Shown here piece after piece: positions 43,666-63,973 of a DNA stretch of 64,000 nt. Below the pieces are notes generated by a model that made no database searches, had not been told where the DNA came from, and saw nothing but the letters and a program-made list of their open reading frames with translations. The number at the start of each line of letters is the position of its first letter. The stretch's first letter is position 1. The stretch is taken from the NCBI GenBank assembly GCA_041650895.1, contig JBAZKF010000001.1, positions 573,181 to 637,180 of the forward strand. Reading direction: 5' to 3'. This DNA is from Patescibacteria group bacterium. Its GTDB lineage: Bacteria; Patescibacteriota; Patescibacteriia; 2-01-FULL-39-33. The position numbers were made by a program, and so were the translations under genes.

Positions 43666-43703
43666 ACGATTTTTATTTTATTACAGTTTTACTCATTTAA
43701 GTA

Positions 43704-43736
43704 TAACAAAAAATCGCCATTTGGGCGACTCTTTGA
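43704..43736. repeat. T0 hairpin repeat copy 1 (aaaaatcgccattt-gggcgact)
   Basis: Near-identical copies at 45402-45436 and 58995-59024. Confidence 0.6.
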
Positions 43737-43768
43737 AAAAATAACTACTGCTATATAACAAATTTGAA

Positions 43769-44506
43769 TTATAGCTTAACAGCCTCAATCGCTAAGCTTT
43801 CCAAAGGCAATCCCTGGTACTGTTGCTTGCTAATATTTTTATTTTCGCCCAAAATATTAACTTCGAGCCCTGACTCTTTTATAATTGCGATATAATCATC
43901 TTTCAATAAAGCTCCACCGACGCAACCAGCAATTAGTGTTTCGTCGTTTTTTTGTTCTTCCGTTAAATTATCTAATAGCACTATGTCAGAAATATACATT
44001 CTACCGCCAGTTTTCAAAACTCTGTAAGCTTCCTTAAACACTTTTAGCTTATTGGGAGCTAAATTTATAACACAATTACTGATAATAATATCGATAGAAT
44101 TATCATCGATCGGTAAAGCTTCAATATCTCCCAACCTAAACTCCACATTTACGTAATTATATTTATCGGCACTTTCCTTGGCCTTAGTGATCATTTCTTC
44201 AGTCATATCAACGCCAATAACCTTGCCGCTATCGCCCACCCGTTTAGTCGCAAGAAAAGCATCAAAACCAGCGCCACTGCCCAAATCCAAAACAATATCA
44301 CCCTCTTTAATTTTCCCCAAAGCAATGGGGTTGCCACATCCTAACCCTAAATTAGCTTCTGGAACGGCGTCCATATCTTCATCGGAATAACCGATACTTT
44401 TTGATATGGCCTGAGCCGACTTACAACCGCAACCACACCCTGATTGGGCTGTGGCTATATTAGCGTAACTTTTCTTAACAATATCCTTAACCTTATTCTG
44501 TTCCAT
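43769..44506 (-). CDS. arsM: Arsenite S-adenosylmethionine methyltransferase (ArsM)
   Basis: [30 protein letters not shown] conserved ArsM motifs. Confidence 0.75.
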
Positions 44507-44571
44507 ATAATTATTGTTAGTTAATCAGTCATAAAATTCTATCACTATTATAAGTTAATAACAATCATTGA

Positions 44572-44672
44572 TTCCATTGCCCCGTCCTCCATATAAAAAA
44601 ACACCCCGTCCGCGTCATCCTCCGCCAATTAACGGAGGCGGATGGCCGGAATGAGGCGCTTTTCGTAAGTGA
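44572..44672. repeat. Degenerate R4-type repeat module (with insertion) at proximal end of cassette array
   Basis: ttccattgccccgtcctccatataaaaaaacacccc ... gcgcttttcgtaagtgag resembles R4 consensus. Confidence 0.45.
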
Positions 44673-44767
44673 GACCAACACCATACCCAATGCAGTTGCC
44701 CTGATACCTCAACCGCTTGGCGACGAAATCAACTCTATTTAGGGGTTAGTTTTTTTGTCTTACTAGT

Positions 44768-44989
44768 TTATGATGATGTTATTTTTATTTGTTTGATTCC
44801 TGCGCGCAAAAGAATAGATAAAACAATAATTAGGGCAATAGTGATTATGATTAAGGGAGTGATCATTAGAAATGATCCACCGGAACTGATACCAAGAATA
44901 GAAAATATAACAGCATACCCAATTACTATGATCATGAGAATGCTGGCCGAAGAAATCATTAAAATTCCTGACATTTTTGATTTTTGCAT
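44768..44989 (-). CDS. Small membrane protein (73 aa)
   Basis: ORF track. Confidence 0.35.
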   Translation of the reverse strand: MQKSKMSGILMISSASILMIIVIGYAVIFSILGISSGGSFLMITPLIIITIALIIVLSILLRAGIKQIKITSS

Positions 44990-45006
44990 AAATACAATTT
45001 ATTTGA

Positions 45007-45378
45007 TTACTTTAGGCAAGACTGGGCTTGATATAAATCTATTGCGGTAATAATACTACCCTGCTTAATTTCATTAGTTCTTGTTGCTCCTAGTTTTGCA
45101 GTGAGACAAGCCTCCATTGTTGAACTGATCGACGTCGGTATTTTTGAAGTATCAATGCCAAGTTTCTTTAATCCTGCAATCTGCTCTTGAGTAAGCAATG
45201 GATTACTGCTGGGAGTTTTGTTCACGGCGTTATCCGCCGTGATTTGAGAAGGAAATATCAATGGTTTGATATTAAGTGGGTCTGCAATCCAGAAATATAT
45301 TCCGGCCAACAATAAAATAAAGAAGATAACCCCCAAAACGGTAAAGAAAACATTAATGATTTTAAGCAGTATTTTCAT
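45007..45378 (-). CDS. Membrane-anchored/secreted hypothetical protein (123 aa)
   Basis: N-terminal TM. Confidence 0.4.
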   Translation of the reverse strand: MKILLKIINVFFTVLGVIFFILLLAGIYFWIADPLNIKPLIFPSQITADNAVNKTPSSNPLLTQEQIAGLKKLGIDTSKIPTSISSTMEACLTAKLGATRTNEIKQGSIITAIDLYQAQSCLK

Positions 45379-45401
45379 AGTATGATATTATATTCTTTAT
45401 T

Positions 45402-45436
45402 ATAACAAAAAATCTCCATTTAAGCGACTTTTTTAT
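45402..45436. repeat. T0 hairpin repeat copy 2
   Basis: aaaaatctccatttaagcgactttttt. Confidence 0.55.
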
Positions 45437-45450
45437 AATCAGTTCCATTC

Positions 45451-45492
45451 TACGAGGATTACGAGTCGATTTTGGAAAAATTGATTGGGTGG
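45451..45492. repeat. R1 repeat (degenerate copy)
   Basis: tacgaggattacgagtcgattttggaaaaattgattgggtgg. Confidence 0.6.
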
Positions 45493-45536
45493 GGTTGAGT
45501 GGTTTAATAGATGTTTCTATGTGCAATTTTAGATAC

Positions 45537-46853: not shown

Positions 46854-47519
46854 ATGAATAAAAAAATAATAGCGATTGTAATTATTTTGGTTATGGTTGT
46901 TGGTGTATTGTTTTTGACTTTTCAAGATAATATAAAAGATATATTATTTAAATCAAATATATCATTGGATAATGTAAGTATTGAAATAATTCAACCTCAT
47001 GCTAACCACAAATTGTCTCCAACACAGTTGGCTAAAGCAAAAGAACTTTTTGGCAAGAATAATATTAGTGAAGATTTTAATGAAGATTTATGGATTTATA
47101 ATTTAATAGAAGGAAATAATGGTGATTATATAATTAAAGCTCTCCAGTTATATAATGGACTCACCATTTTTTCTAGTGATTTGTATTATCATTTTAGAGA
47201 AAACGGCAATATTAGGTATTTGGTTGGAGATGTAGCTCATGTCGATATAAACTCTCTTGAACCAAAAATTTCACCAGAAGAAGCTATTTTAAAAATTAAA
47301 CGTAAACATAAATTAAAGTTGAATGATTTTAATATTGAATTAGGTCTTAGGGATAGGTATATTTCTATGGGTGAAAACAAACAAGAATACCTTTTAGTTT
47401 GGAAAATTACTAGGAATAATAAGGATAATAGTATTGGATTATCTGGCATGTTTAGTGAAGCAATAGTTGATGCAGTCACTGGAGACATTCTATATTATTT
47501 TGATGGCGTGTTTAATTAA
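46854..47519 (+). CDS. Secreted/membrane-anchored hypothetical protein (221 aa), very AT-rich
   Basis: N-terminal TM/signal. Confidence 0.45.
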   Translation: MNKKIIAIVIILVMVVGVLFLTFQDNIKDILFKSNISLDNVSIEIIQPHANHKLSPTQLAKAKELFGKNNISEDFNEDLWIYNLIEGNNGDYIIKALQLYNGLTIFSSDLYYHFRENGNIRYLVGDVAHVDINSLEPKISPEEAILKIKRKHKLKLNDFNIELGLRDRYISMGENKQEYLLVWKITRNNKDNSIGLSGMFSEAIVDAVTGDILYYFDGVFN

Positions 47520-47599
47520 AAAGTTTAGATCCCGCCCAGCCTCATAAAAAAGTATCAAAAAAACACCTAATATAATAGGTGTTTTTTTATCCAGATTTT

Positions 47600-47640
47600 G
47601 CGGGGCTTACGGGGTGATTTTGGAAAAATTGATTGGGTGG
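47600..47640. repeat. R1 repeat
   Basis: gcggggcttacggggtgattttggaaaaattgattgggtgg. Confidence 0.8.
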
Positions 47641-47735: not shown

Positions 47736-47809
47736 TATATATTATCAAATGGTATAATTCAGCCATGGGATTAATCGTGGAAACGGCACTTAACATAAAG
47801 GAGACAAAA

Positions 47810-48184
47810 ATGAGGATTGGAATGTTTAATAAAAATAGCAATGGCTGTACACCATTGCTTCACCATCTTGCTTCTACTCTTGACATCAAAATTCAGTATG
47901 TAGATAAACTCTCTTATCTGACCGGCGAGGACTGTGAATTCAAACTTGATGTTTTGTTGGTGCACCCCAATCTGAGCCCGATTATGTGGGCTGCTCTGCG
48001 AGAATGTGTGCAAAAAAATCCGCACATCAAATTCGTAATTTTACTGGACTCCGAAAGCGTTAGTTGCTTTAATGCTAGCGGACTATCCGGCACCGCCAAT
48101 ATTGAAACGATCCATTGGACCAATGAGAGAGAGTTTCAAAAAATTATCCAACTCATGGAGAATGCGAGGCACTCTGCGGATTGA
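47810..48184 (+). CDS. Hypothetical protein (124 aa; RBS-supported start, track ORF 47765)
   Basis: aaggaga RBS then ATG MRIGMFNK. Confidence 0.45.
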   Translation: MRIGMFNKNSNGCTPLLHHLASTLDIKIQYVDKLSYLTGEDCEFKLDVLLVHPNLSPIMWAALRECVQKNPHIKFVILLDSESVSCFNASGLSGTANIETIHWTNEREFQKIIQLMENARHSAD

Positions 48185-48212
48185 GATTATTCTATTACAT
48201 TTTAGTTCATTA

Positions 48213-48247
48213 CGCCGGGAACAAGGAAGTTCTCGGCATTTTCATTT
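48213..48247 (+). terminator. Cassette terminator (gccgggaac-aagg-aagttctcggc + T-run)
   Basis: Hairpin family shared by several cassettes. Confidence 0.6.
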
Positions 48248-48362
48248 TCCTAAAATCCACTCCATCCCATCCGCCCTAGCCACAAATCAACAAAAAAAGA
48301 CCTACAAAAATAAGCCTTTTTAATCGTCTTATTATGCGAAGAGTAATAGACGATGTTAGAAC
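48241..48362. repeat. R2+R3 repeat module
   Basis: ttttcctaaaatccactcc..ccgccctagccacaaatcaacaaaaaaagacctacaaaaataagcc..cgtcttattatgcgaagagtaatagacgatgttagaacc. Confidence 0.8.
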
Positions 48363-48420
48363 CTATATTAGGCTTCACGATGGTGGTTTTGATATGCCAA
48401 TAATAAGATTGATATTAAGC

Positions 48421-48502: not shown

Positions 48503-48901
48503 ATGGCAACACAAGAGTATATGTTAGTAACTTATTGGTGTTGGGATCATTTTCATAATGAATATTCAACAATTGCTATTGAAATGGATAGTGAAACAGA
48601 TGAGAGTATTGAATCTGTTTTTGACTCTAATGCACCACATTACCTAAAAAACTATCTTATTGGGATATTAAAGAGTATATTTGATACCCGAGAACGCAGC
48701 TCAAATATTTCAATGGGAAAAGGTAAAATGATTCGTCTTTTCAAAATTGTTGGTTCTAATGGATGTCCATTTGGTATTTCTCCGATTCCAAATCATGATT
48801 GCAAGGAATGGAAAATAGGCTTTACTTTGAAGCCAATATGCGACTTTGATAGGGATGGAAATCCAATTCCCCTAGGCTCTTTATATGAATTAAAGCGATA
48901 A
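48503..48901 (+). CDS. Hypothetical protein (132 aa), AT-rich
   Basis: RBS aaggaga. Confidence 0.45.
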   Translation: MATQEYMLVTYWCWDHFHNEYSTIAIEMDSETDESIESVFDSNAPHYLKNYLIGILKSIFDTRERSSNISMGKGKMIRLFKIVGSNGCPFGISPIPNHDCKEWKIGFTLKPICDFDRDGNPIPLGSLYELKR

Positions 48902-48970
48902 GTAAATAAAAAACTTCCACCTCGGACCGTCATCCTTGGGATGGGAGTTTTCTTTTTTTATTCTAATTTT

Positions 48971-49011
48971 GCGGGGCTTACGGGGTGATTTTGGAAAAAT
49001 CGATTGGGTGG
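48971..49011. repeat. R1 repeat
   Basis: gcggggcttacggggtgattttggaaaaatcgattgggtgg. Confidence 0.8.
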
Positions 49012-51313: not shown

Positions 51314-51330
51314 TCTGCTCATTACTACAC

Positions 51331-51365
51331 GCCGAGAACAAGGAAGTTCTCGGCGTTTTCTTTTT
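51331..51365 (+). terminator. Cassette terminator (gccgagaac-aagg-aagttctcggc perfect hairpin + T-run)
   Basis: Perfect 9-bp stem. Confidence 0.65.
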
Positions 51366-51380
51366 GTAAAAATCTGCAAT

Positions 51381-51467
51381 CGATTCCATCGTCCCGTTCT
51401 TAGTATAAAAAACACCCCAATTATGGGGCGTTTTTCGTAGGCGGGCTCGAGTGGGACTGATTATAAC
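51381..51467. repeat. R4 repeat + tRNA-Asp-3-prime-like segment
   Basis: ttccatcgtcccgttcttagtataaaaaacaccccaattatggggcgtttttcgtaggcgg gctcgagtgggactgattataac. Confidence 0.75.
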
Positions 51468-51553
51468 TTATTTTAAGGAGCATAAAGGGGTTTATTATGT
51501 ACCGAATTTAGCTAAAATTAGATGAAATTGAGAATATGTGGATAAATCGCTAT

Positions 51554-51699: not shown

Positions 51700-52179
51700 A
51701 TGAATCAGTCCGCACTTTCCCAATATGAACAAGGTTCCGCTGAACGAGTTATCGCTCATGCCGCTTGGAAACATTCGCGGGGTCGCCAACCCTCGATGAC
51801 TTTCATACTGGAGCACAATCCCCGCAAAGCTCTGGCGCTCGCAAAGTCTGTTATCCGTTGCAATCAACAAACCAAGCTGCTCGATCGAATCGGGGCAAAG
51901 ATTGTCGAGTCCAAAACATACGACAACATGACCGACGCCGAGATCAAAATCGCAGTAAGAAGTATCATCTCCTCATCATCATCTGAAGAAGAAGTGAAAC
52001 AGAGGGTCCGCGATGAACTCGGCTGTCCCTACGGTATCTGTCTTAGCACCGATGTTCCTACCGACGTAGTCGGGAGAGAAGCAAGAGAACTGGTGCGTGG
52101 CCTCGGTGGTCTTGTAATGAAGAACGGCGCCATGGCGATGGCTACGATACACGGCCATAATGGAGTCATTTTGATTTGA
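51700..52179 (+). CDS. Hypothetical protein (159 aa)
   Basis: RBS aaggag. Confidence 0.45.
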   Translation: MNQSALSQYEQGSAERVIAHAAWKHSRGRQPSMTFILEHNPRKALALAKSVIRCNQQTKLLDRIGAKIVESKTYDNMTDAEIKIAVRSIISSSSSEEEVKQRVRDELGCPYGICLSTDVPTDVVGREARELVRGLGGLVMKNGAMAMATIHGHNGVILI

Positions 52180-52212
52180 CCACCAAATAACGAAGCACAT
52201 TCCCCCGCACGA

Positions 52213-52257
52213 TTTTGGGAAGCCCCAAACATTGTGCGGGGCTTTTCATTTTGTTAA
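52213..52257 (+). terminator. Cassette terminator (ccccgcac...gtgcgggg hairpin type 2)
   Basis: Same hairpin at 54027-54065. Confidence 0.6.
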
Positions 52258-52294
52258 AATTTCACTAAGTTATAATGTCCCATTACCCCTATCA

Positions 52295-52355
52295 AAAAAC
52301 ACCCCGATTATGGGGCGTTTTTCGTAGGCGGAGGGTAATAAACGATGTTAGAACC
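52295..52355. repeat. Partial R4 + R3 module
   Basis: aacaccccgattatggggcgtttttcgtaggcggagggtaataaacgatgttagaacc. Confidence 0.7.
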
Positions 52356-52404
52356 CGTCTTAAGGAAAACGACAAATTTAGTTTACCCAGTTCGGCAATT
52401 ATAA

Positions 52405-53244: not shown

Positions 53245-53343
53245 GTTCTATCGTCCCGTTCTTAGTACAAAAAACACCCCGATTATGGGGCGTTTTTCGT
53301 AGGCGGGGCTTACGGGGTGATTTTGGAAAAATTGATTGGGTGG
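53245..53343. repeat. R4 + R1 composite repeat
   Basis: ctatcgtcccgttcttagtacaaaaaacaccccgattatggggcgtttttcgtaggcggggcttacggggtgattttggaaaaattgattgggtgg. Confidence 0.8.
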
Positions 53344-54026: not shown

Positions 54027-54071
54027 CCCCGCACGATTTTGGGAAGCCCCAAACATTGTGCGGGGCTTTTC
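54027..54071 (+). terminator. Cassette terminator (hairpin type 2)
   Basis: ccccgcacgattttgggaagccccaaacattgtgcgggg + T-run. Confidence 0.6.
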
Positions 54072-54191
54072 ATTTTCCTAAAATCCACTCCGTCCCGTCC
54101 GCCCTACCCATTAAATCAACAAAAAAAGACCTACAAAAATAAGCTTTTTTAATCGTCTTATTATGCGAAGAGTAATAGACGATGTTAGAAC
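54071..54191. repeat. R2+R3 module
   Basis: Near-identical to 48241-48362. Confidence 0.8.
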
Positions 54192-54348: not shown

Positions 54349-54687
54349 ATGACGACTCAAAACTATCTCCAAATCGCAAGGGACAATGAAGCGATATTCA
54401 GAAATGTGCTGAGAGACCTAAGGGATAATAGAACAATCAGACCTATGGGACTCTATGTTCCTGAAGACCTGGAAACGGAAGCGGAGCTTGAAAAGATTTT
54501 TGAAGAATACTCTTCTGGAAATAGATACGGAATATTCACGATTACCGATTTCACGGTCGGCGAAGGGTTTGCAACTATTGCGTTTCAAGACATTGCTTGC
54601 TTATCCGGAGGCGGGGCAAGATTAAAGTATTCTGTCAGTGACGACGACGTGCAATACCTTGAGCCAGAATTCACAATGATGAGTTAA
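54349..54687 (+). CDS. Hypothetical protein (112 aa; RBS-supported start)
   Basis: aaggagg RBS then ATG MTTQNYLQ. Confidence 0.45.
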   Translation: MTTQNYLQIARDNEAIFRNVLRDLRDNRTIRPMGLYVPEDLETEAELEKIFEEYSSGNRYGIFTITDFTVGEGFATIAFQDIACLSGGGARLKYSVSDDDVQYLEPEFTMMS

Positions 54688-54756
54688 ATACCGCCAGCCA
54701 CAAACAAAGTACAACTACGCAATTAACGCCGAGGACAAGGAAATCCCCGGCGTTTT

Positions 54757-54892
54757 CTTTTTTCCTAAAATCCCCTCCGTCCCGTCCGCCCTAGCCATAA
54801 ATCAACAAAAAAAGACCTACAAAAGTAGGCCTTTTTATATCGTTCCATAAAGCGGGGCTTACGGGGCGATTTTGGAAAAATCGATTGGGTGG
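54757..54892. repeat. R2 + R1 composite repeat
   Basis: ttttcctaaaatcccctccgtcccgtccgccctagccataaatcaac...tatatcgttccataaagcggggcttacggggcgattttggaaaaatcgattgggtgg. Confidence 0.8.
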
Positions 54893-55077: not shown

Positions 55078-56421
55078 ATGAACCTAACTATAATCGTAAC
55101 ACTGGGCGCTATTGGATTAGTGGTACTAATCGGATTGGCATCCGCACTGTTATTTCGACATGTGGTGAGCACCAATATGGTGCACATTGTACAAAGTCGA
55201 GCAAAAACAACTCCATATGGCACTGGGCAAAAATCCGGTAACGTCTACTACAAATGGCCATCTTGGATTCCAATTTTAGGCGTGACAGTAATTGAATTGC
55301 CGGTAAGCAACTTTGATTTGTCGCTGAACGGCTATGAAGCCTATGATAAAGACAGGGTACCCTTTATGATTGATGTTACTGCCTTCTTTCGCATCAATAA
55401 TACGGCTGAAGCCGCTCAACGCGTCGCCAGTATTCAAGAGATGCGTGAACAATTGGAACTCATTGTAAAGGGTGCTGTAAGAAAAGTCTTGGCATCAGAC
55501 GTTATTGATGCTATTATGGTAGAACGCTCAAAATTTGGAGACCAGTTCACCCATGAAGTTAAAGATCAGCTGATCCAATGGGGCGTCGAATCTGTCAAAG
55601 CTATGGAATTGATGGATATTCGCGACACCAAGGGGTTCGAGGTTATTGCCAATATAATGGCGAAAAAGACATCTTTTATCGCCATGGAAAGCCGCTTAGA
55701 GGTGGCAAGCAATCATCGGAAAGCTGAGAATGCGGAAATTGAGGCGGAACAAGCCATCAGCGTTCGCCAACAAGAATCCCAACAGGTGGTTGGTGAACGG
55801 ACTGCTCAAAAAGATAAGTTGGTGGGAATCGCCCAACAACAGGCACAACAAGAAGTTCTCGAACAAGAAAAAGAAACCCGCGAACGACAAATGGCTGTGC
55901 AACGGGTTCAGCAGGTTCGCGCGGCGGAAATCAGTAAGGACGAAAAAGTCGTTGCTGCTGAGCAAGACAAGGCTACTCGCGTCATTATGGCCGATGGCTC
56001 TCTGTTAGCCCAAATTAAGGAAGCTGAGGGTATCGAAAAACTCGGTGAAGCCAGAGCCGCAGCCGAAAAAGCGATGCAATTGGCACCGGTTCAAGCCAAT
56101 ATTACGTTGGCGAAAGAAATCGGACAAAATGCTGGCTATCAACAATACCTGGCGATGATTGAAGCCATCAAGGCATACATTACTGTTGGAGGTGAACAAG
56201 CAAAGGCTCTGCAAAAAGCTGATGTTAAGGTAATTGCCAATGCTGGACAGCCGACAGAAGGCGTCAAAAATGTCATGGATATGTTCACTTCCAAAGGTGG
56301 AACGAACATGGCGGCAATGATTGAAGCACTCGCTCAGACGCCAATGGGTGCCAAACTTTTGGCAACATTCATCGGCAATAATAGCGATAATGCCGAGGCT
56401 ACTATCGATACTGAGGCATAA
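55078..56421 (+). CDS. SPFH/band-7 (flotillin-like) protein with N-terminal TM and Ala/Glu/Gln-rich coiled coil
   Basis: TM then SPFH-like region, long EAQ-rich coiled coil; start at RBS-supported MNLTII (track 54970). Confidence 0.6.
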   Translation: MNLTIIVTLGAIGLVVLIGLASALLFRHVVSTNMVHIVQSRAKTTPYGTGQKSGNVYYKWPSWIPILGVTVIELPVSNFDLSLNGYEAYDKDRVPFMIDVTAFFRINNTAEAAQRVASIQEMREQLELIVKGAVRKVLASDVIDAIMVERSKFGDQFTHEVKDQLIQWGVESVKAMELMDIRDTKGFEVIANIMAKKTSFIAMESRLEVASNHRKAENAEIEAEQAISVRQQESQQVVGERTAQKDKLVGIAQQQAQQEVLEQEKETRERQMAVQRVQQVRAAEISKDEKVVAAEQDKATRVIMADGSLLAQIKEAEGIEKLGEARAAAEKAMQLAPVQANITLAKEIGQNAGYQQYLAMIEAIKAYITVGGEQAKALQKADVKVIANAGQPTEGVKNVMDMFTSKGGTNMAAMIEALAQTPMGAKLLATFIGNNSDNAEATIDTEA

Positions 56422-56442
56422 GTATAATTTTTTTTCAACAAC

Positions 56443-56472
56443 GCTGAAGACATTCGTCTTCAGCTTTTTTAT
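56443..56472 (+). terminator. Cassette terminator (gctgaagac-attc-gtcttcagc + T-run)
   Basis: Perfect 9-bp stem. Confidence 0.65.
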
Positions 56473-56590
56473 TTTTCTAAAATCATCGTTACCCCATCCG
56501 CCCTAGCCACGAATCAACAAAAAAAGACCTACAAAAATAGGCCTTTTTATATCGTTCCATCTAGCGGAGAGTAATAGACGATGTTAGAAC
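56465..56590. repeat. R2+R3 module
   Basis: ...ccgccctagccacgaatcaacaaaaaaagacctacaaaaataggcctttttatatcgttccatctagcggagagtaatagacgatgttagaac. Confidence 0.8.
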
Positions 56591-56667: not shown

Positions 56668-56708
56668 CTAATATCGAACATTCGACTACAACCAAGGGGA
56701 GATACATA

Positions 56709-57089
56709 ATGACTAAACGAGAATACATACCAAAAGCAAGTGTAAAGAAAAGTGATATAAAAAGAGAAATTTTAGTGGCAATGATTGATTGCGCAGAAAA
56801 TATACGTGGTTATTATGAAGCTGCTGCTGGTTTAATATTTGAGGATGGTTATATACCTCCAGAAGAATTTAGACCCGGGGTAGCTGACAGATTTTTGTTT
56901 TCAAAAATTATTGACGATGATTGGGAAAGAGTGTTAGATATCTACTGTTGCGCACCACTACACCCCAGAATGATTGGGTTTGGACTAATGATAGAAAAAT
57001 ACTATCCCCAGTATGGCACTTTCAGAAAAATGAGCGAGGAAGAAAAAAGAGAGAGAATGAAGCTTAAAAAAACTTGTAGACGAGGATGA
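56709..57089 (+). CDS. Hypothetical protein (126 aa; RBS-supported start), AT-rich
   Basis: aagggga RBS then ATG MTKREY. Confidence 0.45.
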   Translation: MTKREYIPKASVKKSDIKREILVAMIDCAENIRGYYEAAAGLIFEDGYIPPEEFRPGVADRFLFSKIIDDDWERVLDIYCCAPLHPRMIGFGLMIEKYYPQYGTFRKMSEEEKRERMKLKKTCRRG

Positions 57090-57141
57090 AATCAGCCAAT
57101 AAAAAACTCCCAAATTGGGAGTTTATTTTTATTTGGAAAAT

Positions 57142-57182
57142 GCGGGGCTTACGGGGTGATTTTGGAAAAATTGATTGGTTGG
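57142..57182. repeat. R1 repeat
   Basis: gcggggcttacggggtgattttggaaaaattgattggttgg. Confidence 0.8.
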
Positions 57183-57278: not shown

Positions 57279-57372
57279 AATTTGATATTCCATTATTGGA
57301 ATCTCATCCCAGTCCGGGATGGCAGTCGCCAAAAGGACAAAGAACCTTACAGTTAGAAAGGAAAAACCGACC

Positions 57373-58065
57373 ATGGATGACATGCTTGGTGATGCTCTGA
57401 AGACCATCTTCGGACCATTGAAAAACCTCATGGAGCAATTACAGGGAAACAAACGTGAACTGTGGTTGCAAGTATTACAGCAATTATCGAGAATGAAACC
57501 GGAAACGGTTTTACTTAAACTCAGCCGACCACTTTCTCCTCCCCTTTGGATTAAAATCGAGGTTGGCGGACTTAAACTCAAACCGTTGCAAATTATTGAA
57601 AAATTTACTGCGGCAGGAGTCGGTCCAAACCATAAATTCCCATTGATGTTTAGTTTGATTGAGTATCAGCGAGGAATCAACGCTGAAACTAAAGATGTTG
57701 AGTTCGTTAAGGGCAATCTTTATGAACTATTTGGAATCACAAAAGAGAAGATTTCCGTCGACTATTTTCTAAACAATGAATTTCTGGCGCAATATGGACT
57801 AGAGCTATGTGAACCTGCCGATGCAATCTCTATTCGTCTCGCTTGGAAAGATCAAAGAAAGGGCGAAAGGGCTTTTGTGGGGACAAAGCCTTACTACTAT
57901 ACAAGAAAAGAACAGCCAGATGGATACCTCTACCCAACAGTTCCTTCGCTGATGGGAGCGGCTGGAAAGGTATGGTTTGGAGAGGATTGGGCCACGGCCG
58001 ACATGGGACCTTGTAGTTACACTCGTAATGTTTGGATATTCAGACGTAAGTGCATCCAATCGTAA
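57373..58065 (+). CDS. Hypothetical protein (230 aa; track ORF starts 57319)
   Basis: RBS-like aaggaaaaa before ATG 57373. Confidence 0.4.
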   Translation: MDDMLGDALKTIFGPLKNLMEQLQGNKRELWLQVLQQLSRMKPETVLLKLSRPLSPPLWIKIEVGGLKLKPLQIIEKFTAAGVGPNHKFPLMFSLIEYQRGINAETKDVEFVKGNLYELFGITKEKISVDYFLNNEFLAQYGLELCEPADAISIRLAWKDQRKGERAFVGTKPYYYTRKEQPDGYLYPTVPSLMGAAGKVWFGEDWATADMGPCSYTRNVWIFRRKCIQS

Positions 58066-58085
58066 GCACATTCGATAAATTTCAA

Positions 58086-58117
58086 CACCGAGGACAAGAA
58101 AGTTCTCGGTGTTTTCA
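58086..58117 (+). terminator. Cassette terminator (caccgagga-caagaaa-gttctcggtg)
   Basis: Same hairpin at 61685-61710. Confidence 0.6.
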
Positions 58118-58236
58118 TTTTCCTAAAATCCACTCCGTCCCGTCCGCCCTAACCACAAATCAACTAAAAAAGACCTACAAAAGTAGGCCTTTTTATATCG
58201 TTTCATCTAGCGGGAGAAAGTGGACGAAGTTATAAC
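58112..58236. repeat. R2 + R3-variant module
   Basis: ...ccgccctaaccacaaatcaactaaaaaagacctacaaaagtaggcctttttatatcgtttcatctagcgggagaaagtggacgaagttataacc. Confidence 0.8.
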
Positions 58237-58300
58237 CTTTTTTAATACATACGAAGGTTATTATTACATACCAAACTTAAGTTCAATAAAATAACTACTT

Positions 58301-58957: not shown

Positions 58958-58994
58958 AGTTTTTAATTGTTTTCATTTATACGTTTAGTATACT

Positions 58995-59024
58995 AAAAAA
59001 TCGCCATTTAGGCGACTTTTTATA
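58995..59024. repeat. T0 hairpin repeat copy 3
   Basis: aaaaatcgccatttaggcgacttttt then ataatctgttccgtttgcggac (degenerate junction motif). Confidence 0.55.
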
Positions 59025-59135
59025 ATCTGTTCCGTTTGCGGACTGGTGAGGTCAAGTACCAAAATATAGAGGTCTTTCAAAGCTTTTTTGGACTATTTAT
59101 TTTAGAAAATTTGAGGTGTTAGGGTCATGATATAT

Positions 59136-60125
59136 TTAAAATGGCTTATTTTTTTCAAGCCAATTTAACGAATAAAAATCACCAAGATGCATTTCTAAAG
59201 ATAAAAATTGATCCTCTAGGAAAAAAGCATACTGTTTTAAGTCCTCTTCAGATCCATAATTTTTATATACCTCATTTATCAAATGAGTTACTCTTTTTCC
59301 TAGTCTTTTACCGTCTATTGGGTCTAATCGTTTGCCATCATGGACAATATCATTTCTAATCTTGTATGCTTCCCAAATTACATTTGCAGCATTTTCACCA
59401 TTCATAGGACACACGATATTCATATGAGTCTGTAATGTGTTTTTAAAATCAATCTTTCCATTTGATTTATAAACTTGGATTCCATGATACTTGATAAATG
59501 TTTCAATTGATGTTATGGATTTTCTAATACAATCTTCATAATTGCCGCTAAAATATGCATGCATTGAATCAACCAAATCTCGTATATATGTCCGATTAAA
59601 TTTTGATTGCAAATCAACTAATGGAGGAAATGAACCAATGGCCATGGGCCACATCACTAAAATCCTTTCACACGTTTCGCTTATAATAATACAGAGATCA
59701 GAGATATCCATTACTGAATACGTCCGTATCAAAAAATGTCCCTTTAAATATCTTTGATTGAGAATCTCATGATTCACATACGGCATTATTTCAGCAATAT
59801 ATGCAACTATAAAATTATCGCCTCTATGCTTTTGCTGAATGTCTTCAATCAATTTTTTAGAAAGTTTCTCTCTAATAGTAATACTAATAATAGAGCCTCG
59901 CTGATTTAGCCAAACCGTTTTTTCATCAAAATTTATGACGGCATCACTAATCTCTCCTGGAGAAAATAGCTGGGCATGAATTTCTACTGGAATTTTTACA
60001 TTGTCCTCTACATATTCTTGCCCTATGTAATATCTTAAATGTTTTGGTTTATATGCTGTATTTTTCAATTTTTTAAATATTTTCGAAAAACTCATAAAAA
60101 TGTAATTAAAAAAAATCGAGCACAA
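59136..60125 (-). CDS. Hypothetical protein (329 aa)
   Basis: ORF track. Confidence 0.45.
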   Translation of the reverse strand: MCSIFFNYIFMSFSKIFKKLKNTAYKPKHLRYYIGQEYVEDNVKIPVEIHAQLFSPGEISDAVINFDEKTVWLNQRGSIISITIREKLSKKLIEDIQQKHRGDNFIVAYIAEIMPYVNHEILNQRYLKGHFLIRTYSVMDISDLCIIISETCERILVMWPMAIGSFPPLVDLQSKFNRTYIRDLVDSMHAYFSGNYEDCIRKSITSIETFIKYHGIQVYKSNGKIDFKNTLQTHMNIVCPMNGENAANVIWEAYKIRNDIVHDGKRLDPIDGKRLGKRVTHLINEVYKNYGSEEDLKQYAFFLEDQFLSLEMHLGDFYSLNWLEKNKPF

Positions 60126-60185
60126 AGCTCGATCTTTTTATGCACATTTGAAGTGCTCGGGTCGCTCGATAAAACGAGCTTAGTG

Positions 60186-60226
60186 GCGGGGCTTACGGGG
60201 CAATTTTGGAAAAATTGATTGGATGG
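60186..60226. repeat. R1 repeat
   Basis: gcggggcttacggggcaattttggaaaaattgattggatgg. Confidence 0.75.
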
Positions 60227-60293
60227 AGGTGGTGATAGATTGGCCAAATTGTCTAAAATTTAACAAGCGCTTTATTTGTTGATAATTTTCTCC

Positions 60294-60418: not shown

Positions 60419-61666
60419 ATGGGAACGAAACATAAACAAAAAAGACAGCCGCAGGACAAATTGGGATACTGGCTACGAAAACTCCCAATTTGTCGAGAAA
60501 TTGTGGTCTCGCAAATGCAAGAGTGTCCGCCGATAGTCCCCGAGTTAGATGTCAAATATCAAATCGCGGATACGGCAACAATGCATTTACAGGCAAACAA
60601 CATTCATCTTTATAGTGGTCGGTATCTCATCGGCGACAATAATGAGCGTGGCACACGTTTTGAATATGCCTTGGCCGTGGATGCTAAGGGAAAAGTCATT
60701 AGCCGATTAGAATGGCGACGAGGTACTCTCGGACCAAATAATACCGAACTCTATCTTAAATATATTTTTGGTTTTGGTAAAAAACCTGAGGTTATCACAC
60801 AAATCAAGGAAATCTATTGGGTGACTATCTATCATTGGTATACCGCTCCGACACCCACTGATACTAATCCAGTAGAACCGAACTTCGGTAATACCATGAA
60901 GAAGATTGAAACTCACATCATCGTCTTCCGTAAGCCAAGAAATAAATCGTTTGCTGAGCTGATTGAACAAGCAGAACGCGAGAAGGAGGAATGCGAAACC
61001 GCATACCTGAGATTCCCAAAAAAGATGCCAAAATATCACGGCATTGAGGCGGCCTTACGCGCCGGATGCAAAATGCACGCCTTTTCTTCCGGTGGTGGCC
61101 TGCGAGTGGTACGTCTGGAAAGAGCTGCAAAAGACGGAAAGCGAAACATCAATTATCCAAAATTAATGGGCTATGGCGAACATCCACATATTGAGGAAGC
61201 TCTCAAACAACTTAATGAAGATTATTTAGCCGGCGGACGACCTTATAAAAAGGTTTACGGCAAACTCTATCCCCACTATCTTACTGGCGACACAGTTTCT
61301 ACCAGCAACATTGATTGGTGGATTCGTAAAGGCAGTACCTTTGATTGCTGGTTTGAAAATGGTGAGGTAATATTCCAATTGGCCGGTCTAATTCAAACAG
61401 AGACGCCACCATTAGTACTGGCTGCAGTCGAAACTGAAGGAAAAACAGTTCGTTGTAGTAATCGAGGATACACCTATGAGGCCTCGCCATATCTTTTTGC
61501 TAATGGAGAAATAGGCAGCTCATCGACTGTAATTGAAGGACCGGCTGACCAACCCAATAGCGATGCATGGATGTATCACATCAATAAAACTGGACACGGC
61601 CAGAGTTTCTGGGAGGCAATGAAAGCCGCTTTTGAAGCGCCAGAAATTGAGGTCACGAGTAACTAA
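60419..61666 (+). CDS. Hypothetical protein (415 aa; RBS-supported start)
   Basis: aaggaga RBS then ATG MGTKHKQ. Confidence 0.45.
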   Translation: MGTKHKQKRQPQDKLGYWLRKLPICREIVVSQMQECPPIVPELDVKYQIADTATMHLQANNIHLYSGRYLIGDNNERGTRFEYALAVDAKGKVISRLEWRRGTLGPNNTELYLKYIFGFGKKPEVITQIKEIYWVTIYHWYTAPTPTDTNPVEPNFGNTMKKIETHIIVFRKPRNKSFAELIEQAEREKEECETAYLRFPKKMPKYHGIEAALRAGCKMHAFSSGGGLRVVRLERAAKDGKRNINYPKLMGYGEHPHIEEALKQLNEDYLAGGRPYKKVYGKLYPHYLTGDTVSTSNIDWWIRKGSTFDCWFENGEVIFQLAGLIQTETPPLVLAAVETEGKTVRCSNRGYTYEASPYLFANGEIGSSSTVIEGPADQPNSDAWMYHINKTGHGQSFWEAMKAAFEAPEIEVTSN

Positions 61667-61684
61667 GCACACCAACACCGAGGA

Positions 61685-61721
61685 CAAGAAAGTTCTCGGT
61701 GTTTTCTTTTTTCTAAAATCA
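61685..61721 (+). terminator. Cassette terminator
   Basis: caccgaggacaagaaagttctcggtg + T-run. Confidence 0.6.
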
Positions 61722-61824
61722 CCTCTGTCCCGTCCGCCCTAACCGCAAATCAACAAAAAAAGATCTACTTTTATAGGCCTTTTTATGTTGTTCCATTAAG
61801 CGGAGGGTAATAGACGATGTTAGA
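61704..61824. repeat. R2+R3 module
   Basis: ...ccgccctaaccgcaaatcaacaaaaaaagatctacttttataggcctttttatgttgttccattaagcggagggtaatagacgatgttagaac. Confidence 0.75.
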
Positions 61825-61874
61825 ACTTATCTTGATGGGTGTAAGGAGAGTTTTGAGATGCCTAAAATTGGCGT

Positions 61875-61903
61875 TTGACATAATAATAAGATTATGATAA
61901 GTT
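61875..61903 (+). promoter_or_regulatory. Cassette promoter TTGACA-17-TAAGTT
   Basis: Weaker -10. Confidence 0.4.
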
Positions 61904-61982
61904 ATTACATTAGTTGTAATAATTTTGGTCTTTAACAAAACAGGCTATCCTAATCGGGAGGCCATAACAAGGAGAATATCAG

Positions 61983-62807
61983 ATGCACAAGAAAGAGCTG
62001 ATTGGCCGATTAGAGCAGTTTGTTGTCACTTTTGAACAACGTAGGCCGGCGTGGAAGGGTCAGCGGTCATTCGCCAACTTCCTAATTTACTATCTCGGCA
62101 AGCTCAATATACCCAACGACGAAAAGTATGACTTCTGGGATATTGACCACTACCTGCCAGAACTGATGGTGGATGCTTTTGAGCAGCTGCGAACCGGCAC
62201 CGATGAGGAGACCGCTCGTTTTCGTAGCGAGTATGAAAAGGATGCAGAACACGAAGTGCCTAATATCACTGACCTTGGCGTGACTGATACTTTACATCAA
62301 TGTTTTGCCGTTCAGACCACGCTAGGATTTCTGCTCAAAGATGTTATGGAAAATGATTGGATTGAACACCACATTGAGACCTACTGCAATGCCCAATTAC
62401 ACGTTCTTCAACAGACCTTTGATAAATTCACCCGACTTGTCTATCGACGAGGATTGGGTGAAATTATTGAAAAATGTCCCAAAAGCGGGATGAGCGGTAA
62501 GTTTGGTGATGTTGAACTCCGTACCTTCATAACAGCCGGTCGCATTATGTTCACTTTTGCCAAACCAATAGACAAGAGTAAGAAAAGCTACTATAAGGAC
62601 GGTGATAAAACGTATTGCAACGAATGGAGTGTTTCATTTATTGGCGAAGATGGCGACCCGCTCTTATTGAGTGCCGGCATGCAATCAATTGGAGCAGACT
62701 TCCGCACCGCTCTTAATTTGATTGAAGAGGTTATTAAGAACTGGCCATCAGCCCCGAAACAACAAAAGAGGATTTACAAAGCAAGCCCCAATGTCAGTTT
62801 AGTATAA
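61983..62807 (+). CDS. Hypothetical protein (274 aa)
   Basis: RBS aaggaga. Confidence 0.45.
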   Translation: MHKKELIGRLEQFVVTFEQRRPAWKGQRSFANFLIYYLGKLNIPNDEKYDFWDIDHYLPELMVDAFEQLRTGTDEETARFRSEYEKDAEHEVPNITDLGVTDTLHQCFAVQTTLGFLLKDVMENDWIEHHIETYCNAQLHVLQQTFDKFTRLVYRRGLGEIIEKCPKSGMSGKFGDVELRTFITAGRIMFTFAKPIDKSKKSYYKDGDKTYCNEWSVSFIGEDGDPLLLSAGMQSIGADFRTALNLIEEVIKNWPSAPKQQKRIYKASPNVSLV

Positions 62808-62884
62808 CGATTAACAATGTTAGATGCTCATTGCGTCCCGTGGTATTTTTTACACGGGGCGCTTTTTATTTCCCGAATGCCGTC

Positions 62885-62971
62885 GGTTCCATCGTCCCGT
62901 TCTCAGTATAAAAAAACACCCCGATTATGGGGCGTTTTTCGTAGGCGGAGGGTAATAGACGATGTTAGAAC
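62885..62971. repeat. R4 + R3 module
   Basis: ggttccatcgtcccgttctcagtataaaaaaacaccccgattatggggcgtttttcgtaggcggagggtaatagacgatgttagaacc. Confidence 0.8.
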
Positions 62972-63078
62972 CTATATTGGTGGGTGTGGAAGGAGCTTTG
63001 AGATACCCCAAATAATCCCCTGACAAAAAAACGCTCCAGGTTATACCTGAAGCGGATGATGATATGCGACTTTAATCA

Positions 63079-63747
63079 TTAGCCCTTAAGTGATGCGGAA
63101 ATTCGTTTGCAAGAATCTTCAAGTAGGTCATGGTTCCACGACCAACGTGCTGGACAATCCCTACAAAGACAAATTACGCTTCTGCGGCCATTCGGATTTT
63201 TCATAATATCACCAAAGAAGTAAACGCATTCTACTCCCTTACTGTCATATAATTTCTCCAACACACAATCTTTGCCGTAAGCTATGTAGTTCCGCCAAAG
63301 AATGAGAAAGGCCTTGACCCCAAGTTGGATATTACCACTCTCTTCGGCGCGTCTCAATTTTTCCTCGCCGGTGATTTTTAACTCACCCTTATTGAGATGC
63401 GTCTCAAAAAGCACATTCTCCCAATTGATAAACACTAATCTTTCAGCGCGTAAGTCACGCTTGTCCCAATCATAAATTTCAAGACACTCACCAAAAAAAT
63501 CCCGTATACTGCATCTATCGAAAGATTGGACATTGATTGTCACACAAGACAGCCCCAGTAAATCCAGAAATCTATGGAATTTTCGCTTAAGGAATTGAGT
63601 AGCCACTGTCGGGTTTTGAAGTTTATAACCACTGGGAATTTTACTTGTAACGGGCAATGATGAATCAAGAGCCGAAAGCATAAAGCCACCAGGAACATCC
63701 TGGTCATTCAATACGGCTGATTCATTGACTTTTTGAACTCTTGCCAT
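63079..63747 (-). CDS. Hypothetical protein (222 aa)
   Basis: ORF track. Confidence 0.45.
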   Translation of the reverse strand: MARVQKVNESAVLNDQDVPGGFMLSALDSSLPVTSKIPSGYKLQNPTVATQFLKRKFHRFLDLLGLSCVTINVQSFDRCSIRDFFGECLEIYDWDKRDLRAERLVFINWENVLFETHLNKGELKITGEEKLRRAEESGNIQLGVKAFLILWRNYIAYGKDCVLEKLYDSKGVECVYFFGDIMKNPNGRRSVICLCRDCPARWSWNHDLLEDSCKRISASLKG

Positions 63748-63835
63748 TGTTCATTTTCTCCTCTCGAGTTTGTTTTTATGAAAGAACACTCCATATTCGG
63801 ATAAGTTATAATATCAAAACAATCAATACTTGTCA

Positions 63836-63899
63836 ATCGGTTCCATCGTCCCGTTCTCGGTATAAAAAAACACCCCAATTATGGGGCGTTTTTTGTAGG
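63836..63899. repeat. R4 repeat abutting tRNA-Asp 3-prime end (native tRNA terminator)
   Basis: ggttccatcgtcccgttctcggtataaaaaaacaccccaattatggggcgttttttgtaggcgg directly followed by tRNA. Confidence 0.8.
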
Positions 63900-63973
63900 C
63901 GGACCGGACGGGACTCGAACCCGCGACCTCTGCCGTGACAGGGCAGCGCTCTAACCAACTGAGCTACCGATCC
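63900..63973 (-). tRNA. tRNA-Asp (anticodon GUC)
   Basis: Acceptor ggatcgg/ccggtcc, anticodon loop ctgtcac, T-loop ttcgagt; no CCA encoded. Confidence 0.85.

Follow-up and report, generated by a model that had tools for sequence, protein, structure and literature searches.

We identified an array of ~18 small gene cassettes, separated by conserved noncoding repeat blocks and ending at a tRNA-Asp gene, in a Patescibacteria group bacterium. The sequence analysed, referred to below as the window, is a 64,000-nucleotide stretch of GenBank assembly GCA_041650895.1 (contig JBAZKF010000001.1, positions 573,181 to 637,180), and positions given without a locus name are numbered from its first nucleotide. 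The array extends over ~20 kb from 43.7 kb to the tRNA-Asp gene and contains 19 junctions and 22 open reading frames (ORFs), which bears out the number of cassettes (~18) counted in an earlier sequence-only reading of the window. Arrays built from the same blocks around other cargo are present in related genomes. The locus is an accessory-gene island, hypervariable in content, that has grown on the 3' side of tRNA-Asp by accretion of small integrase-less cassettes. We give an even chance to the interpretation that these cassettes are moved by site-specific recombination at the tetranucleotide GCGG, with secondary reshuffling by homologous recombination.

The window is part of a bacterial chromosome and not of a phage, as it encodes GroEL, a CCA-adding enzyme, a DipM-like peptidase and six tRNAs. 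The chromosome is of the Candidatus Buchananbacteria type (Patescibacteria), and the nearest arrays elsewhere lie in genomes labelled Candidatus Buchananbacteria. Members of the candidate phyla radiation (CPR, or Patescibacteria) have tiny genomes, and little is known of how they acquire and exchange genes.

Organization of the junctions

Read on the plus strand, a cassette consists of GCGG, a right arm, a sigma70 promoter with its 5' untranslated region (UTR), one or two genes in either orientation, a gene terminator, a left arm and a terminator-like hairpin. The left arm, of type R2L or T0L, repeats right-arm or tRNA-Asp 3' end sequence in inverted form. Aligning the intergenic regions, as the sequence-only reading had proposed, does define the boundaries of the repeats: in a curated alignment 17 of the 19 junctions line up exactly at GCGG or GCGA, the latter replacing GCGG at two junctions (J5 and J10), and these 17 share one layout. 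An optional gene terminator, often of the type designated T1, is followed by an optional left arm, a conserved hairpin, a spacer of 5-23 nt, GCGG and the right arm. The hairpin is of the R2H, T0H, Hc or a short unique type, with an A-run and a T-run on either side. The right arm is R1, a member of the R3 family, a unique sequence or, at the last junction, the 3' end of tRNA-Asp. This 3' end (GGCGGA on the plus strand) replaces the right arm at J19 and anchors the array on the right.

Left blocks and right arms are freely combined, and the switch point is exactly GCGG. The T0 block is joined to R1, R3, R3'' and the tRNA, the R2 block to R1, R3 and R3', and the short hairpin to R1 in the window and to R3 in a related locus (L031). 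Cassettes beginning with R1 are flanked by T0, short-hairpin, L6, R2 and Hc blocks, with which they have only GCGG in common; homology alone cannot yield such insertions. A GCGG or GGCGG(A) motif marks every junction (as GCGA at the two just named), and past these 5-6 nt the likeness of the window's R1 and R3 arms to the tRNA is weak. No target-site duplications are visible at the junctions in the 17-junction alignment. Direct repeats of whole left-arm/hairpin blocks flank several cassettes (T0 around C7, C8 and C18; R2 around C10 and C11). The copy at J18 (62894-62972) has 91% identity to the reference T0 copy of family D8 (52277-52355), and the T0 block before the tRNA (63848-63926) has 66% identity to the same reference, diverging only where the body of the tRNA starts.

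Repeat blocks, promoters and terminators

A repeat search of the window returned 15 direct-repeat families restricted to 43.7-63.9 kb, and BLAST of 12 block consensi against the whole window gave matches only at 45.4-63.97 kb. Neither these consensi nor a count of the R1 20-mer revealed a copy in the other 43 kb, in agreement with the earlier statement that the blocks are found nowhere else in the window. The R1 20-mer ATTTTGGAAAAATYGATTGG occurs in seven copies, as first counted, where 0.01 are expected. The R1 right arm is GCGGGGCTTACGGGGTGATTTTGGAAAAATTGATTGGGTGG and the right arm of the R3 family is GCGGAGGGTAATAGACGATGTTAGAAC, the variants R3' and R3'' ending in TTATAAC. Seven copies had also been reported for R2/R3; this holds for the R2 hairpin block (7-8 copies) but not for the R3 family, which has nine members (six R3, two R3' and one R3''). 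The block originally listed as R4 is the conserved gene terminator T1 (family D10), the hairpin of which has the form ACGCCGAGNAC...GTTCTCGGCGTTTTC, and it is present in seven copies rather than six. Similarly, the T0 hairpin was undercounted at three, as there are five intact copies and one decayed copy.

The hairpin terminators of the sequence-only reading are supported by numbers: terminator-like hairpins total 42 compared with 17.3 +/- 3.8 in shuffled sequences, a 2.4-fold enrichment. Immediately 5' of cargo genes are seven extended sigma70 promoters that are near-perfect, agreeing with the consensus at 11-12 of 12 positions and carrying the TG extension. However, the consensus TTGACA-17-TATGATA also occurs beyond the array, at 30305 and 35807 (family D20), and is thus the ordinary promoter of the genome rather than an array-specific one. 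Promoters and terminators accompany every junction, but the promoter that had been assigned to each unit is not a feature of the cassette as such. Judged from the near-consensus promoters and the terminators that flank individual cassettes, the cassettes are probably self-expressed, as had been proposed. Five cassettes lie on the minus strand, each with its own promoter at its far end; because cargo occurs in either orientation and inverted cassettes are self-promoted, the arms are not simply promoter elements. The same is true of R1 in particular: it stands anywhere between 44 and 102 nt from the -35 box, and it is also found at array ends without a gene behind it.

Additional short motifs were observed near or within the blocks. 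A palindromic motif of the form TTRTCTAAAWTTAGA is located between R1 and the -35 box of most R1 units (47663-47680, 49037-49055, 53368-53386, 54915-54932, 57203-57220 and 60247-60262) and could be an operator for a common regulator. In R3 units a conserved TTTTGAGATGCC sits 12-25 nt 5' of the -35 box. Some R2 left arms carry, at one fixed place, an optional GC-rich palindrome similar to CCTGCCTGCCAGTAGGCAGG (46679-46698 in the window; ~8300 and ~12040 in L058; ~1310-1335 on the reverse complement of L050), which is a mini-insertion inside the repeat.

Arrays in related genomes

Relatives were sought by exact match to the R1 20-mer in species-representative genomes, and by a scan of metagenomes. 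The representative genomes yielded two true loci, both from Candidatus Buchananbacteria (L029, with three matches within 8 kb, and L031, with one), together with ~33 single chance matches in unrelated phyla. The metagenomes yielded 11 additional loci, and all true loci hold arrays of the same blocks. In each of the two Buchananbacteria genomes the matches fall within one 8-kb stretch, as far as exact matching in incomplete metagenome-assembled genomes can tell. Together with the single locus in the window, this distribution upholds the view that the blocks form a cassette array and are neither chance similarities nor a dispersed family of repetitive extragenic palindromic (REP) sequences.

The arrays of relatives contain the same blocks around other cargo, and cargo that is shared has differing neighbours (L029, L047, L050 and L031), a shuffling between genomes of the kind that the sequence-only reading had proposed to look for. 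A membrane protein gene is shared by L029 and L047 (82% DNA identity), a Fic gene by L031 and L047 (84%) and a gene for a 314-aa protein by L029 and L050 (77%). A macro-domain gene common to L047 and L050 (81%) has its own promoter in L050 and is the second gene of an operon in L047. The gene at 46854-47519 of the window recurs in L029 (72%). Whereas shared cargo has only 72-84% DNA identity, the cores of R1 and R3 are 95-100% identical across species. Conservation of noncoding cores so far above that of coding DNA points to a sequence-specific function.

Two other contexts of array components were noted. A protein 33% identical to the 314-aa cargo protein of L058 is encoded at 10001-10936 of L066 (JGI contig Ga0212088_10000006, 373,808 bp). 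Its surroundings are phage-like, with dozens of small genes on one strand that lack family matches; they adjoin an IS605 OrfB/TnpB gene and have no array blocks. In four samples (L048, L051, L055 and L056; 12263-13140 in L048) an identical arrangement is found, in which a single junction of Hc and R1 is followed by an insertion sequence of the IS3 family with a helix-turn-helix OrfA and an rve integrase-core gene.

Boundaries and the tRNA-Asp gene

ARAGORN and Rfam agree on the tRNA-Asp(GTC) at the array end, where the sequence-only reading had placed it, and an intact tRNA-Asp(GTC) also ends the arrays of L058 and L065. The L058 array is complete with 10-kb flanks. It starts as x|GCGG-R1 (at 5850), without hairpin or left arm, and ends at a tRNA-Asp that is oriented as in the window and has rpsP after it. 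The right end of L065 is likewise tRNA-Asp and then rpsP. An integrase beyond the tRNA, which had been suggested as something to look for, is thus not what these relatives have there. Both loci also contain clear partial 3' ends of tRNA-Asp. The complete three-cassette array of L050/L062 starts as x|GCAG-R1, again without left arm or hairpin, and ends as R2L-R2H-GCGG at the 3' end of a ferredoxin gene, with no tRNA nearby.

The right edges of complete arrays therefore have a common form, left arm, hairpin and GCGG|chromosome, and all boundaries fit the insertion of units running from right arm to left arm-hairpin at GCGG. The tRNA-Asp gene is the usual target and not the sole one: the proposed anchoring at tRNA-Asp stands for the window, L058 and L065, but not for L050/L062. 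The gene for the 123-aa secreted-type protein at the far left of the window array has a homologue that adjoins tRNA-Asp in L058 (BLASTP 37% identity, E = 4e-16). Beyond the left edge, the M2 peptidase of the flank has homologues 70-72% identical that lie in differing neighbourhoods without arrays.

Contigs of the same organism in the Logan assembly of SRR8542065 (L001, L040 and L060) end exactly at junction repeats, L001 corresponding to 62928-63928 of the window. The matching fragments are only 1-3.4 kb long and are broken at the repeats. As short-read contigs break there, such arrays probably come out fragmented or under-represented in metagenome-assembled genomes built from short reads.

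A second kind of unit at tRNA 3' ends

In L058 and L065 a structured noncoding element of ~200 nt is located between the last Hc hairpin and tRNA-Asp. It starts with a decayed tRNA-Asp 3' end and finishes with an inverted T-arm-like sequence, a hairpin and GCGG, and it contains two internal hairpins with compensatory changes. Second copies are present inside the arrays. A search with nhmmer located a tandem pair of copies at tRNA-Asp. In L065 a second tRNA has three to four tandem copies on its 3' side, and there the ends of the element match the 3' end of this second tRNA instead. The element belongs to no Rfam family, and nhmmer detected no copy in the window; the region at 44.56-44.77 kb was considered as a homologue and rejected, its alignment being unconvincing and without an nhmmer match. 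The element shows that this lineage contains units which lack an integrase, insert at the 3' ends of tRNA genes and carry both direct and inverted copies of the target, the same end structure as that of the gene cassettes.

Pairing between cassette arms

Several junctions fold as long imperfect hairpins that enclose the central hairpin, with z-scores down to -3.4. We compared all left arms with all reverse-complemented right arms in a full matrix, for which the 99th percentile of shuffled sequences is a local-alignment score of 18. R2 left arms are complementary to R1 arms (scores of 19-27), and several also match the 3' end of tRNA-Asp (20-21). The variant T0 left arm of J8 is the inverted partner of the R3'' arm of J7 (score 27, -14.6 kcal/mol). 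With DNA parameters, duplexes of R1 and R2L have energies of -14 to -19 kcal/mol compared with -7.5 +/- 2.2 for shuffled arms.

The arms that pair are those at the two ends of one cassette. Pairing within cassettes exceeds that obtained by random assignment of left arms (permutation p = 0.047), whereas pairing across junctions is no better than random (p = 0.67). In addition, an R2-type left arm closes six of seven R1 cassettes and one of ten others (Fisher p = 0.0037). Cognate inverted arms at opposite ends are expected if a circular cassette with a palindromic site recombined at GCGG.

Other identities for the arms were considered. R1 and R3 are not detected as pseudo-tRNAs by ARAGORN or the Rfam tRNA model, and their similarity to tRNA by eye past GGCGG is weak and is not claimed. 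Inspection by eye and a count of core pairs gave no convincing dif/Xer-like or attC-like motif in the arms. Rfam recognised only the tRNA, both at gathering thresholds and at E <= 10, where the remaining matches are sub-threshold hairpin noise. Searches with the blocks of phage and plasmid collections and of three viral-contig scans gave no match apart from a single viral one, which is a chance similarity inside a coding region.

Cargo genes

The cargo is foreign and mostly of unknown function. Fifteen of the 22 array ORFs have no confident Pfam match, and the methyltransferases, radical S-adenosylmethionine (SAM), SPFH and HD-domain proteins recognised among the rest confirm its description as unrelated and miscellaneous. 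GC content does differ between units, as had been noticed: it ranges from 0.27 to 0.57 per gene and from 0.19 to 0.64 at third codon positions (GC3), even between adjacent genes. We also considered known defence systems as cargo, for which PADLOC and PHROGs returned only generic matches to methyltransferase and radical-SAM domains.

Proposed mechanism

In a circular form of a cassette, the left arm, hairpin, GCGG and right arm would form an imperfect palindrome of 100-130 bp. On recombination at or beside GCGG the cassette would be inserted and its arms separated, one to each end, with the tRNA-Asp 3' end (...GGCGG) or any existing junction as partner site. Later, homologous recombination between conserved blocks of 40-130 bp, including the consensus promoter and T1, could swap, delete and reorder cargo. 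The data show directly the anatomy of the cassettes, their confinement to one locus, the conservation of blocks between species, the turnover of cargo, the association with tRNA-Asp and the pairing of cognate arms. The circular intermediate, the crossover at GCGG and the trans-acting recombinase are what we infer, since the enzyme and any mobile intermediate are missing. As no enzyme is encoded in or beside the arrays, it must act in trans.

A more specific form of this scheme is possible, although we put it forward tentatively. The arrays may be an integron-like cassette-capture platform of Candidatus Buchananbacteria (CPR), where the tRNA-Asp 3' end would take the role of attI and a tRNA-derived, attC-like palindrome would be split on integration by a trans-acting recombinase, possibly working on folded single-stranded DNA, while the cassettes bring their own promoter and terminator. 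The integron-like character put forward by the sequence-only reading is thus retained for the array of small unrelated genes; no recombinase was found, and the term describes a possible way of working and not an identity.

Several observations weigh against site-specific accretion. Pfam assigned none of the 22 array proteins to Phage_integrase or any other recombinase family and found no tyrosine or serine recombinase among 56 ORFs of array loci; nor is there a recombinase within 6-10 kb of arrays in relatives, including 6 kb on either side in L058. A search of the array loci with XerD by phmmer was also negative, and the absence of an integrase inside the array, already noticed from the sequence, therefore holds. 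The sequence on either side of GCGG is not conserved across all junctions, a pattern that sits uneasily with one sequence-specific enzyme. Statistical support for arm pairing is modest (p ~0.05) and rests mainly on the R1/R2 family. The window and two further samples of its species are collinear and give no direct sign of mobility, and diverged copies would have escaped the exact R1 search. Finally, one cargo unit, encoding a protein of 314, 311 or 309 aa, recurs in three genomes with R3, R1 or a truncated R1 ahead of it and with a different left-arm/hairpin block behind it in each.

Alternative explanations

This last unit leads to the most serious alternative. Its 5' UTR, coding region and T1 terminator are kept in all three genomes, so that exchange points also lie at the consensus promoter and just past the terminator, as in the shuffling of promoter early stem-loop (PeSL) modules of phages. 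The blocks could accordingly be portable homology and transcriptional insulators, among which RecA-type exchange, deletion and circularisation occur, for example after DNA uptake, and the tRNA-like pieces would be remnants. The lack of a recombinase near any array is as this alternative predicts, and the blocks, at 40-130 bp and 90-100% identity, are sufficient for homologous recombination; direct repeats of T0 and R2 flank individual cassettes. Phage PeSLs flank genes without known homologs and yield mini-circles (PMC2839356), and a cargo homologue is present in the 374-kb phage-like contig. However, homologous recombination cannot supply a left block with a new right arm, whereas R1, R3, R3' and the tRNA are found joined, precisely at GCGG and without homology, to blocks of the T0, R2, short-hairpin, L6 and Hc types. 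It also leaves unexplained why left and right arms repeat one another, and the 3' end of tRNA-Asp, in inverted form, why tRNA-Asp is occupied in three genomes, and why cores of 20-40 nt have stayed 95-100% conserved from one species to the next although changes in a terminator or promoter would be tolerated. Some homologous recombination between blocks has to be involved, but we think it rather unlikely that the arrays arise in this way throughout.

Alternatively, the blocks might be cis-regulatory or insulator modules without any mobility. R1, R3 and the downstream palindrome TCTAAAATTAGA would then be operators or UP-type sites of a shared transcription factor, insulated by double terminators. 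R1 and R3 do lie upstream of strong promoters, the conserved motifs described above are placed between R1 and the -35 box or close to the -35 box of R3 units, and terminators are enriched. We nevertheless find a purely regulatory role improbable. The occurrence of R1 at array ends with no gene downstream and its variable spacing to the -35 box do not suit an operator, and R3 arms precede inverted genes that have their own promoter at the opposite end (52405-53178 and 63079-63747). Cargo turnover, heterogeneous GC3 and inverted arms derived from tRNA would also go unexplained.

A further alternative, selfish palindromes that colonise the intergenic regions of a pre-existing gene cluster, in the manner of REP sequences, bacterial interspersed mosaic elements (BIMEs) or miniature inverted-repeat transposable elements (MITEs), is quite improbable. 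The junctions are mosaics of a few palindromic units, as are BIMEs; several fold as imperfect hairpins (z-scores of -2 to -3.4), and small optional palindromic inserts are present in blocks of the window, L058 and L050. However, no copy lies in the remaining 43 kb of the window, the exact R1 matches of two Buchananbacteria genomes fall in one 8-kb stretch, and target-site duplications are not seen. The intervening genes are compositionally foreign and differ between relatives, and the repeats thus travel with the cargo rather than invade a stable cluster.

A true integron or integrase-less cluster of attC sites (CALIN) is scarcely credible in spite of the mostly single-gene cassettes of unknown function, the imperfect palindromes of 100-130 bp between them and the lack of an integrase in the array, since there is no tyrosine recombinase, each cassette has a promoter and terminator, the families switch at GCGG beside the central hairpin and not at an outer R' box, and the core pair RYYYAAC...GTTRRRY (47-140 nt spacing, 43.7-63.97 kb) occurs 0 times compared with 4.2 +/- 2.8 in shuffled sequences, in accord with the earlier judgement that the repeats are not attC-like.

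Features of the window

Coordinates are collected in Table 1. Apart from the array, the window contains a low-GC (30-37%) element of ~11.7 kb (5860-17600) that is inserted in comM, with GGCGTG shared by its junctions. It encodes a large serine recombinase, the only recombinase among the ORFs tested in the rest of the window, as well as a CAP-domain protein. We considered this recombinase as the enzyme of the array and found the proposal unsupported, as it is part of an element with GGCGTG-type junctions of its own. The element looks like an ordinary integrative element or prophage remnant that is unrelated to the array.

Table 1. Features of the cassette array, copies of the ~200-nt element in related loci, and the element inserted in comM
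Feature	Position	Strand	Description and basis
tRNA-Asp(GTC)	63898..63973	-	ARAGORN; Rfam tRNA, 71.3 bits; junction alignment
Leftmost Hc-type hairpin	43697..43739		AAAAAATCGCCATTTGGGCGAC; repeat family D14; without GCGG or right arm; provisional left array edge
J1	44567..44680		Family D13; decayed T0-like block; hairpin broken by ~47-nt GC-rich insert
J2	45396..45492		Hc hairpin and decayed R1 (ACGAGGATTACGAGTCGATTTTGGAAAAATTGATTGGGTGG)
J3	46603..46792		Gene terminator, R2 left arm with palindromic insert, R2 hairpin, GCGG, R3'
J4	47547..47640		Short terminator hairpin, GCGG, R1
J5	48212..48366		T1, R2 left arm, R2 hairpin, GCGA, R3
J6	48908..49011		Short terminator hairpin, GCGG, R1
J7	51329..51468		T1, T0 left arm, T0 hairpin, GGCGG, R3''
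J8	52203..52356		T1', variant T0 left arm, T0 hairpin, GGCGG, R3
J9	53245..53343		T0 left arm, T0 hairpin, GGCGG, R1
J10	54027..54191		T1', R2 left arm, R2 hairpin, GCGA, R3; families D11 and D17
J11	54726..54892		T1, R2 left arm, R2 hairpin, GCGG, R1; folds as long imperfect palindrome
J12	56439..56590		T1'', variant R2 left arm, R2 hairpin, GCGG, R3
J13	57098..57182		Short terminator hairpin, GGAAAAT-GCGG, R1; identical left block joined straight to R3 in L031
J14	58085..58240		T1, R2 left arm, R2 hairpin, GCGG, R3'
J15	58984..59060		Hc hairpin, GCGG, unique right arm (R5); family D14
J16	60107..60226		Two hairpins (L6 block, also in L047), GCGG, R1
J17	61675..61826		T1, R2 left arm, R2 hairpin, GCGG, R3
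J18	62828..62975		Gene terminator, T0 left arm, T0 hairpin, GGCGG, R3
J19	63836..63903		T0 left arm (inverted tRNA-Asp 3' end copy), T0 hairpin (tRNA terminator), GGCGG = tRNA 3' end
SAM-dependent methyltransferase, 245 aa	43769..44506	-	Pfam Methyltransf_31, E = 3e-39
Two small membrane or secreted proteins, 73 and 123 aa	44768..45378	-	ORF calls
Radical-SAM-like protein, 321 aa	45619..46584	+	Pfam Radical_SAM, E = 5e-6, below family cut-off
221-aa protein	46854..47519	+	No confident family; GC3 0.19; 63%-identical homologue in L058 array
139-aa protein	47765..48184	+	No family match (Pfam)
132-aa protein	48503..48901	+	No family match (Pfam)
Radical SAM/SPASM enzyme pair, 360 and 333 aa	49233..51313	+	Pfam Radical_SAM and SPASM
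159-aa protein	51700..52179	+	No family match (Pfam)
Methyltransferase, 257 aa	52405..53178	-	Pfam; inverted relative to its arms, own promoter
GC-rich pair, 100 and 60 aa	53542..54019	+	No family match (Pfam); GC3 0.64
112-aa protein	54349..54687	+	No family match (Pfam)
SPFH/Band 7 protein	55078..56421	+	Pfam Band_7, E = 3.6e-14
126-aa protein	56709..57089	+	No family match (Pfam)
248-aa protein	57319..58065	+	No family match (Pfam)
HD-domain hydrolase, 218 aa	58301..58957	-	Pfam HD, E = 3.6e-10
329-aa protein	59136..60125	-	No family match (Pfam)
415-aa protein	60419..61666	+	No family match (Pfam)
274-aa protein	61983..62807	+	No family match (Pfam)
222-aa protein	63079..63747	-	No family match; cassette nearest tRNA, inverted; own TTGACA-17-TATTAT promoter, 63836-63808
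~200-nt element copies, L058	9560-9803, 14441-14673		
~200-nt element copies, L065	10975-11206, 12092-12479, 14537-15255		
comM, N-terminal piece	5009-5890		
Large serine recombinase	5780-7456	-	Within comM-inserted element
Toprim/primase-like protein	14027-16282		Within comM-inserted element
comM, C-terminal piece	17596-18273		

Three observations concern the window outside the array. Within the comM-inserted element, ORF 10193-10792 contains three tandem 33-nt repeats (10499-10597). Another radical SAM/SPASM protein is encoded at 22740-23897, adjoining a winged-helix regulator (24203-25045). Finally, a tRNA-Ile with anticodon TAT (UAU) is located at 28842-28915, beside a tRNA-Val(GAC) on the opposite strand. 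The UAU anticodon is uncommon in bacteria and implies decoding of AUA without lysidine.

Comparison with known systems

A compact, self-expressed and integrase-less array that keeps its structure from species to species as its cargo changes would serve these organisms as a dedicated locus for sampling genes. Should a site-specific enzyme be responsible, this would be a second, independently evolved integron-like system with sites derived from tRNA, and its promoter-gene-terminator units could be useful as parts. If homologous recombination alone is responsible, the PeSL principle of phages would extend to bacterial chromosomes. Either way, the ~15 cargo proteins without a confident family are prime candidates for functions in interactions with hosts or phages. 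Literature searches on such arrays in CPR bacteria found nothing, which is consistent with the impression that they are undescribed, but close analogues exist in tRNA and transfer-messenger RNA (tmRNA) accretion, cis-mobilizable elements (CIMEs), tycheposon islands and PeSLs.

The nearest in kind is tandem accretion at tRNA or tmRNA genes, with PeSL-like regulatory modularity as a second resemblance. In accretion islands, as here, the island lies at the 3' end of a tRNA gene, the repeats that separate units include that 3' end or appear to mimic it, older units are displaced away from the tRNA, and the cargo is mixed and mostly of unknown function. The ssrA islands of Dehalococcoides are an example of tandem accretion (PMC3146451), and scattered partial tRNAs are found in the tycheposon islands of Prochlorococcus (bioRxiv 10.1101/2020.12.28.424599). 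CIMEs are defined as units without an integrase that retain both att-like ends (PMC5704250), and the cassettes resemble them in this respect. In contrast to accretion islands, however, the units described here are only 0.7-2.5 kb long, carry one or two genes and stand ~18 in a row, and none has an integrase or a remnant of one. Their junctions are conserved mosaics of inverted arm, hairpin, GCGG and direct arm instead of simple partial tRNAs, only 5-6 nt are strictly common to junctions and tRNA, and one array is located away from a tRNA.

Integrons and CALINs share with the array an ordered series of small, mostly single-gene cassettes of unrelated function, separated by bulged imperfect palindromes of 100-130 bp, with a single fixed insertion point at one end and no recombinase inside the array. 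Unlike integrons, the array has no intI and no attC core motifs, and its anchor is a tRNA 3' end rather than attI. Integron cassettes are promoterless and depend on a common Pc, whereas these cassettes have their own promoters and terminators and occur in either orientation. Moreover, the apparent exchange point is beside the central hairpin, so that two cassettes hold one part each of every palindrome.

The PeSLs of T4-type phages consist of a promoter and a stem-loop that flank genes without known homologs in hyperplastic regions (PMC2839356), and recombination between modules shuffles genes and can release mini-circles (PMC2839356; PMC4122927). The array similarly has modules of promoter and terminator stem-loop around small genes without known homologs, with breakpoints at promoter and terminator. 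It differs in its location on a bacterial chromosome and not in a phage hyperplastic region, in its strongly conserved, non-regulatory blocks from a tRNA 3' end (R1, R3 and the left arms), and in the precise meeting of non-homologous blocks at GCGG. With REP, BIME and MITE families the array has in common intergenic palindromic units that combine as mosaics and are often terminator-like; however, its repeats occur at one locus and are not dispersed, as far as the window and exact R1 matches in two Buchananbacteria genomes go, and they are tied to cargo that turns over between genomes. What is unusual here is the combination of very small and uniform units, no trace of an integrase, and palindromic, strongly conserved junction modules derived from tRNA.

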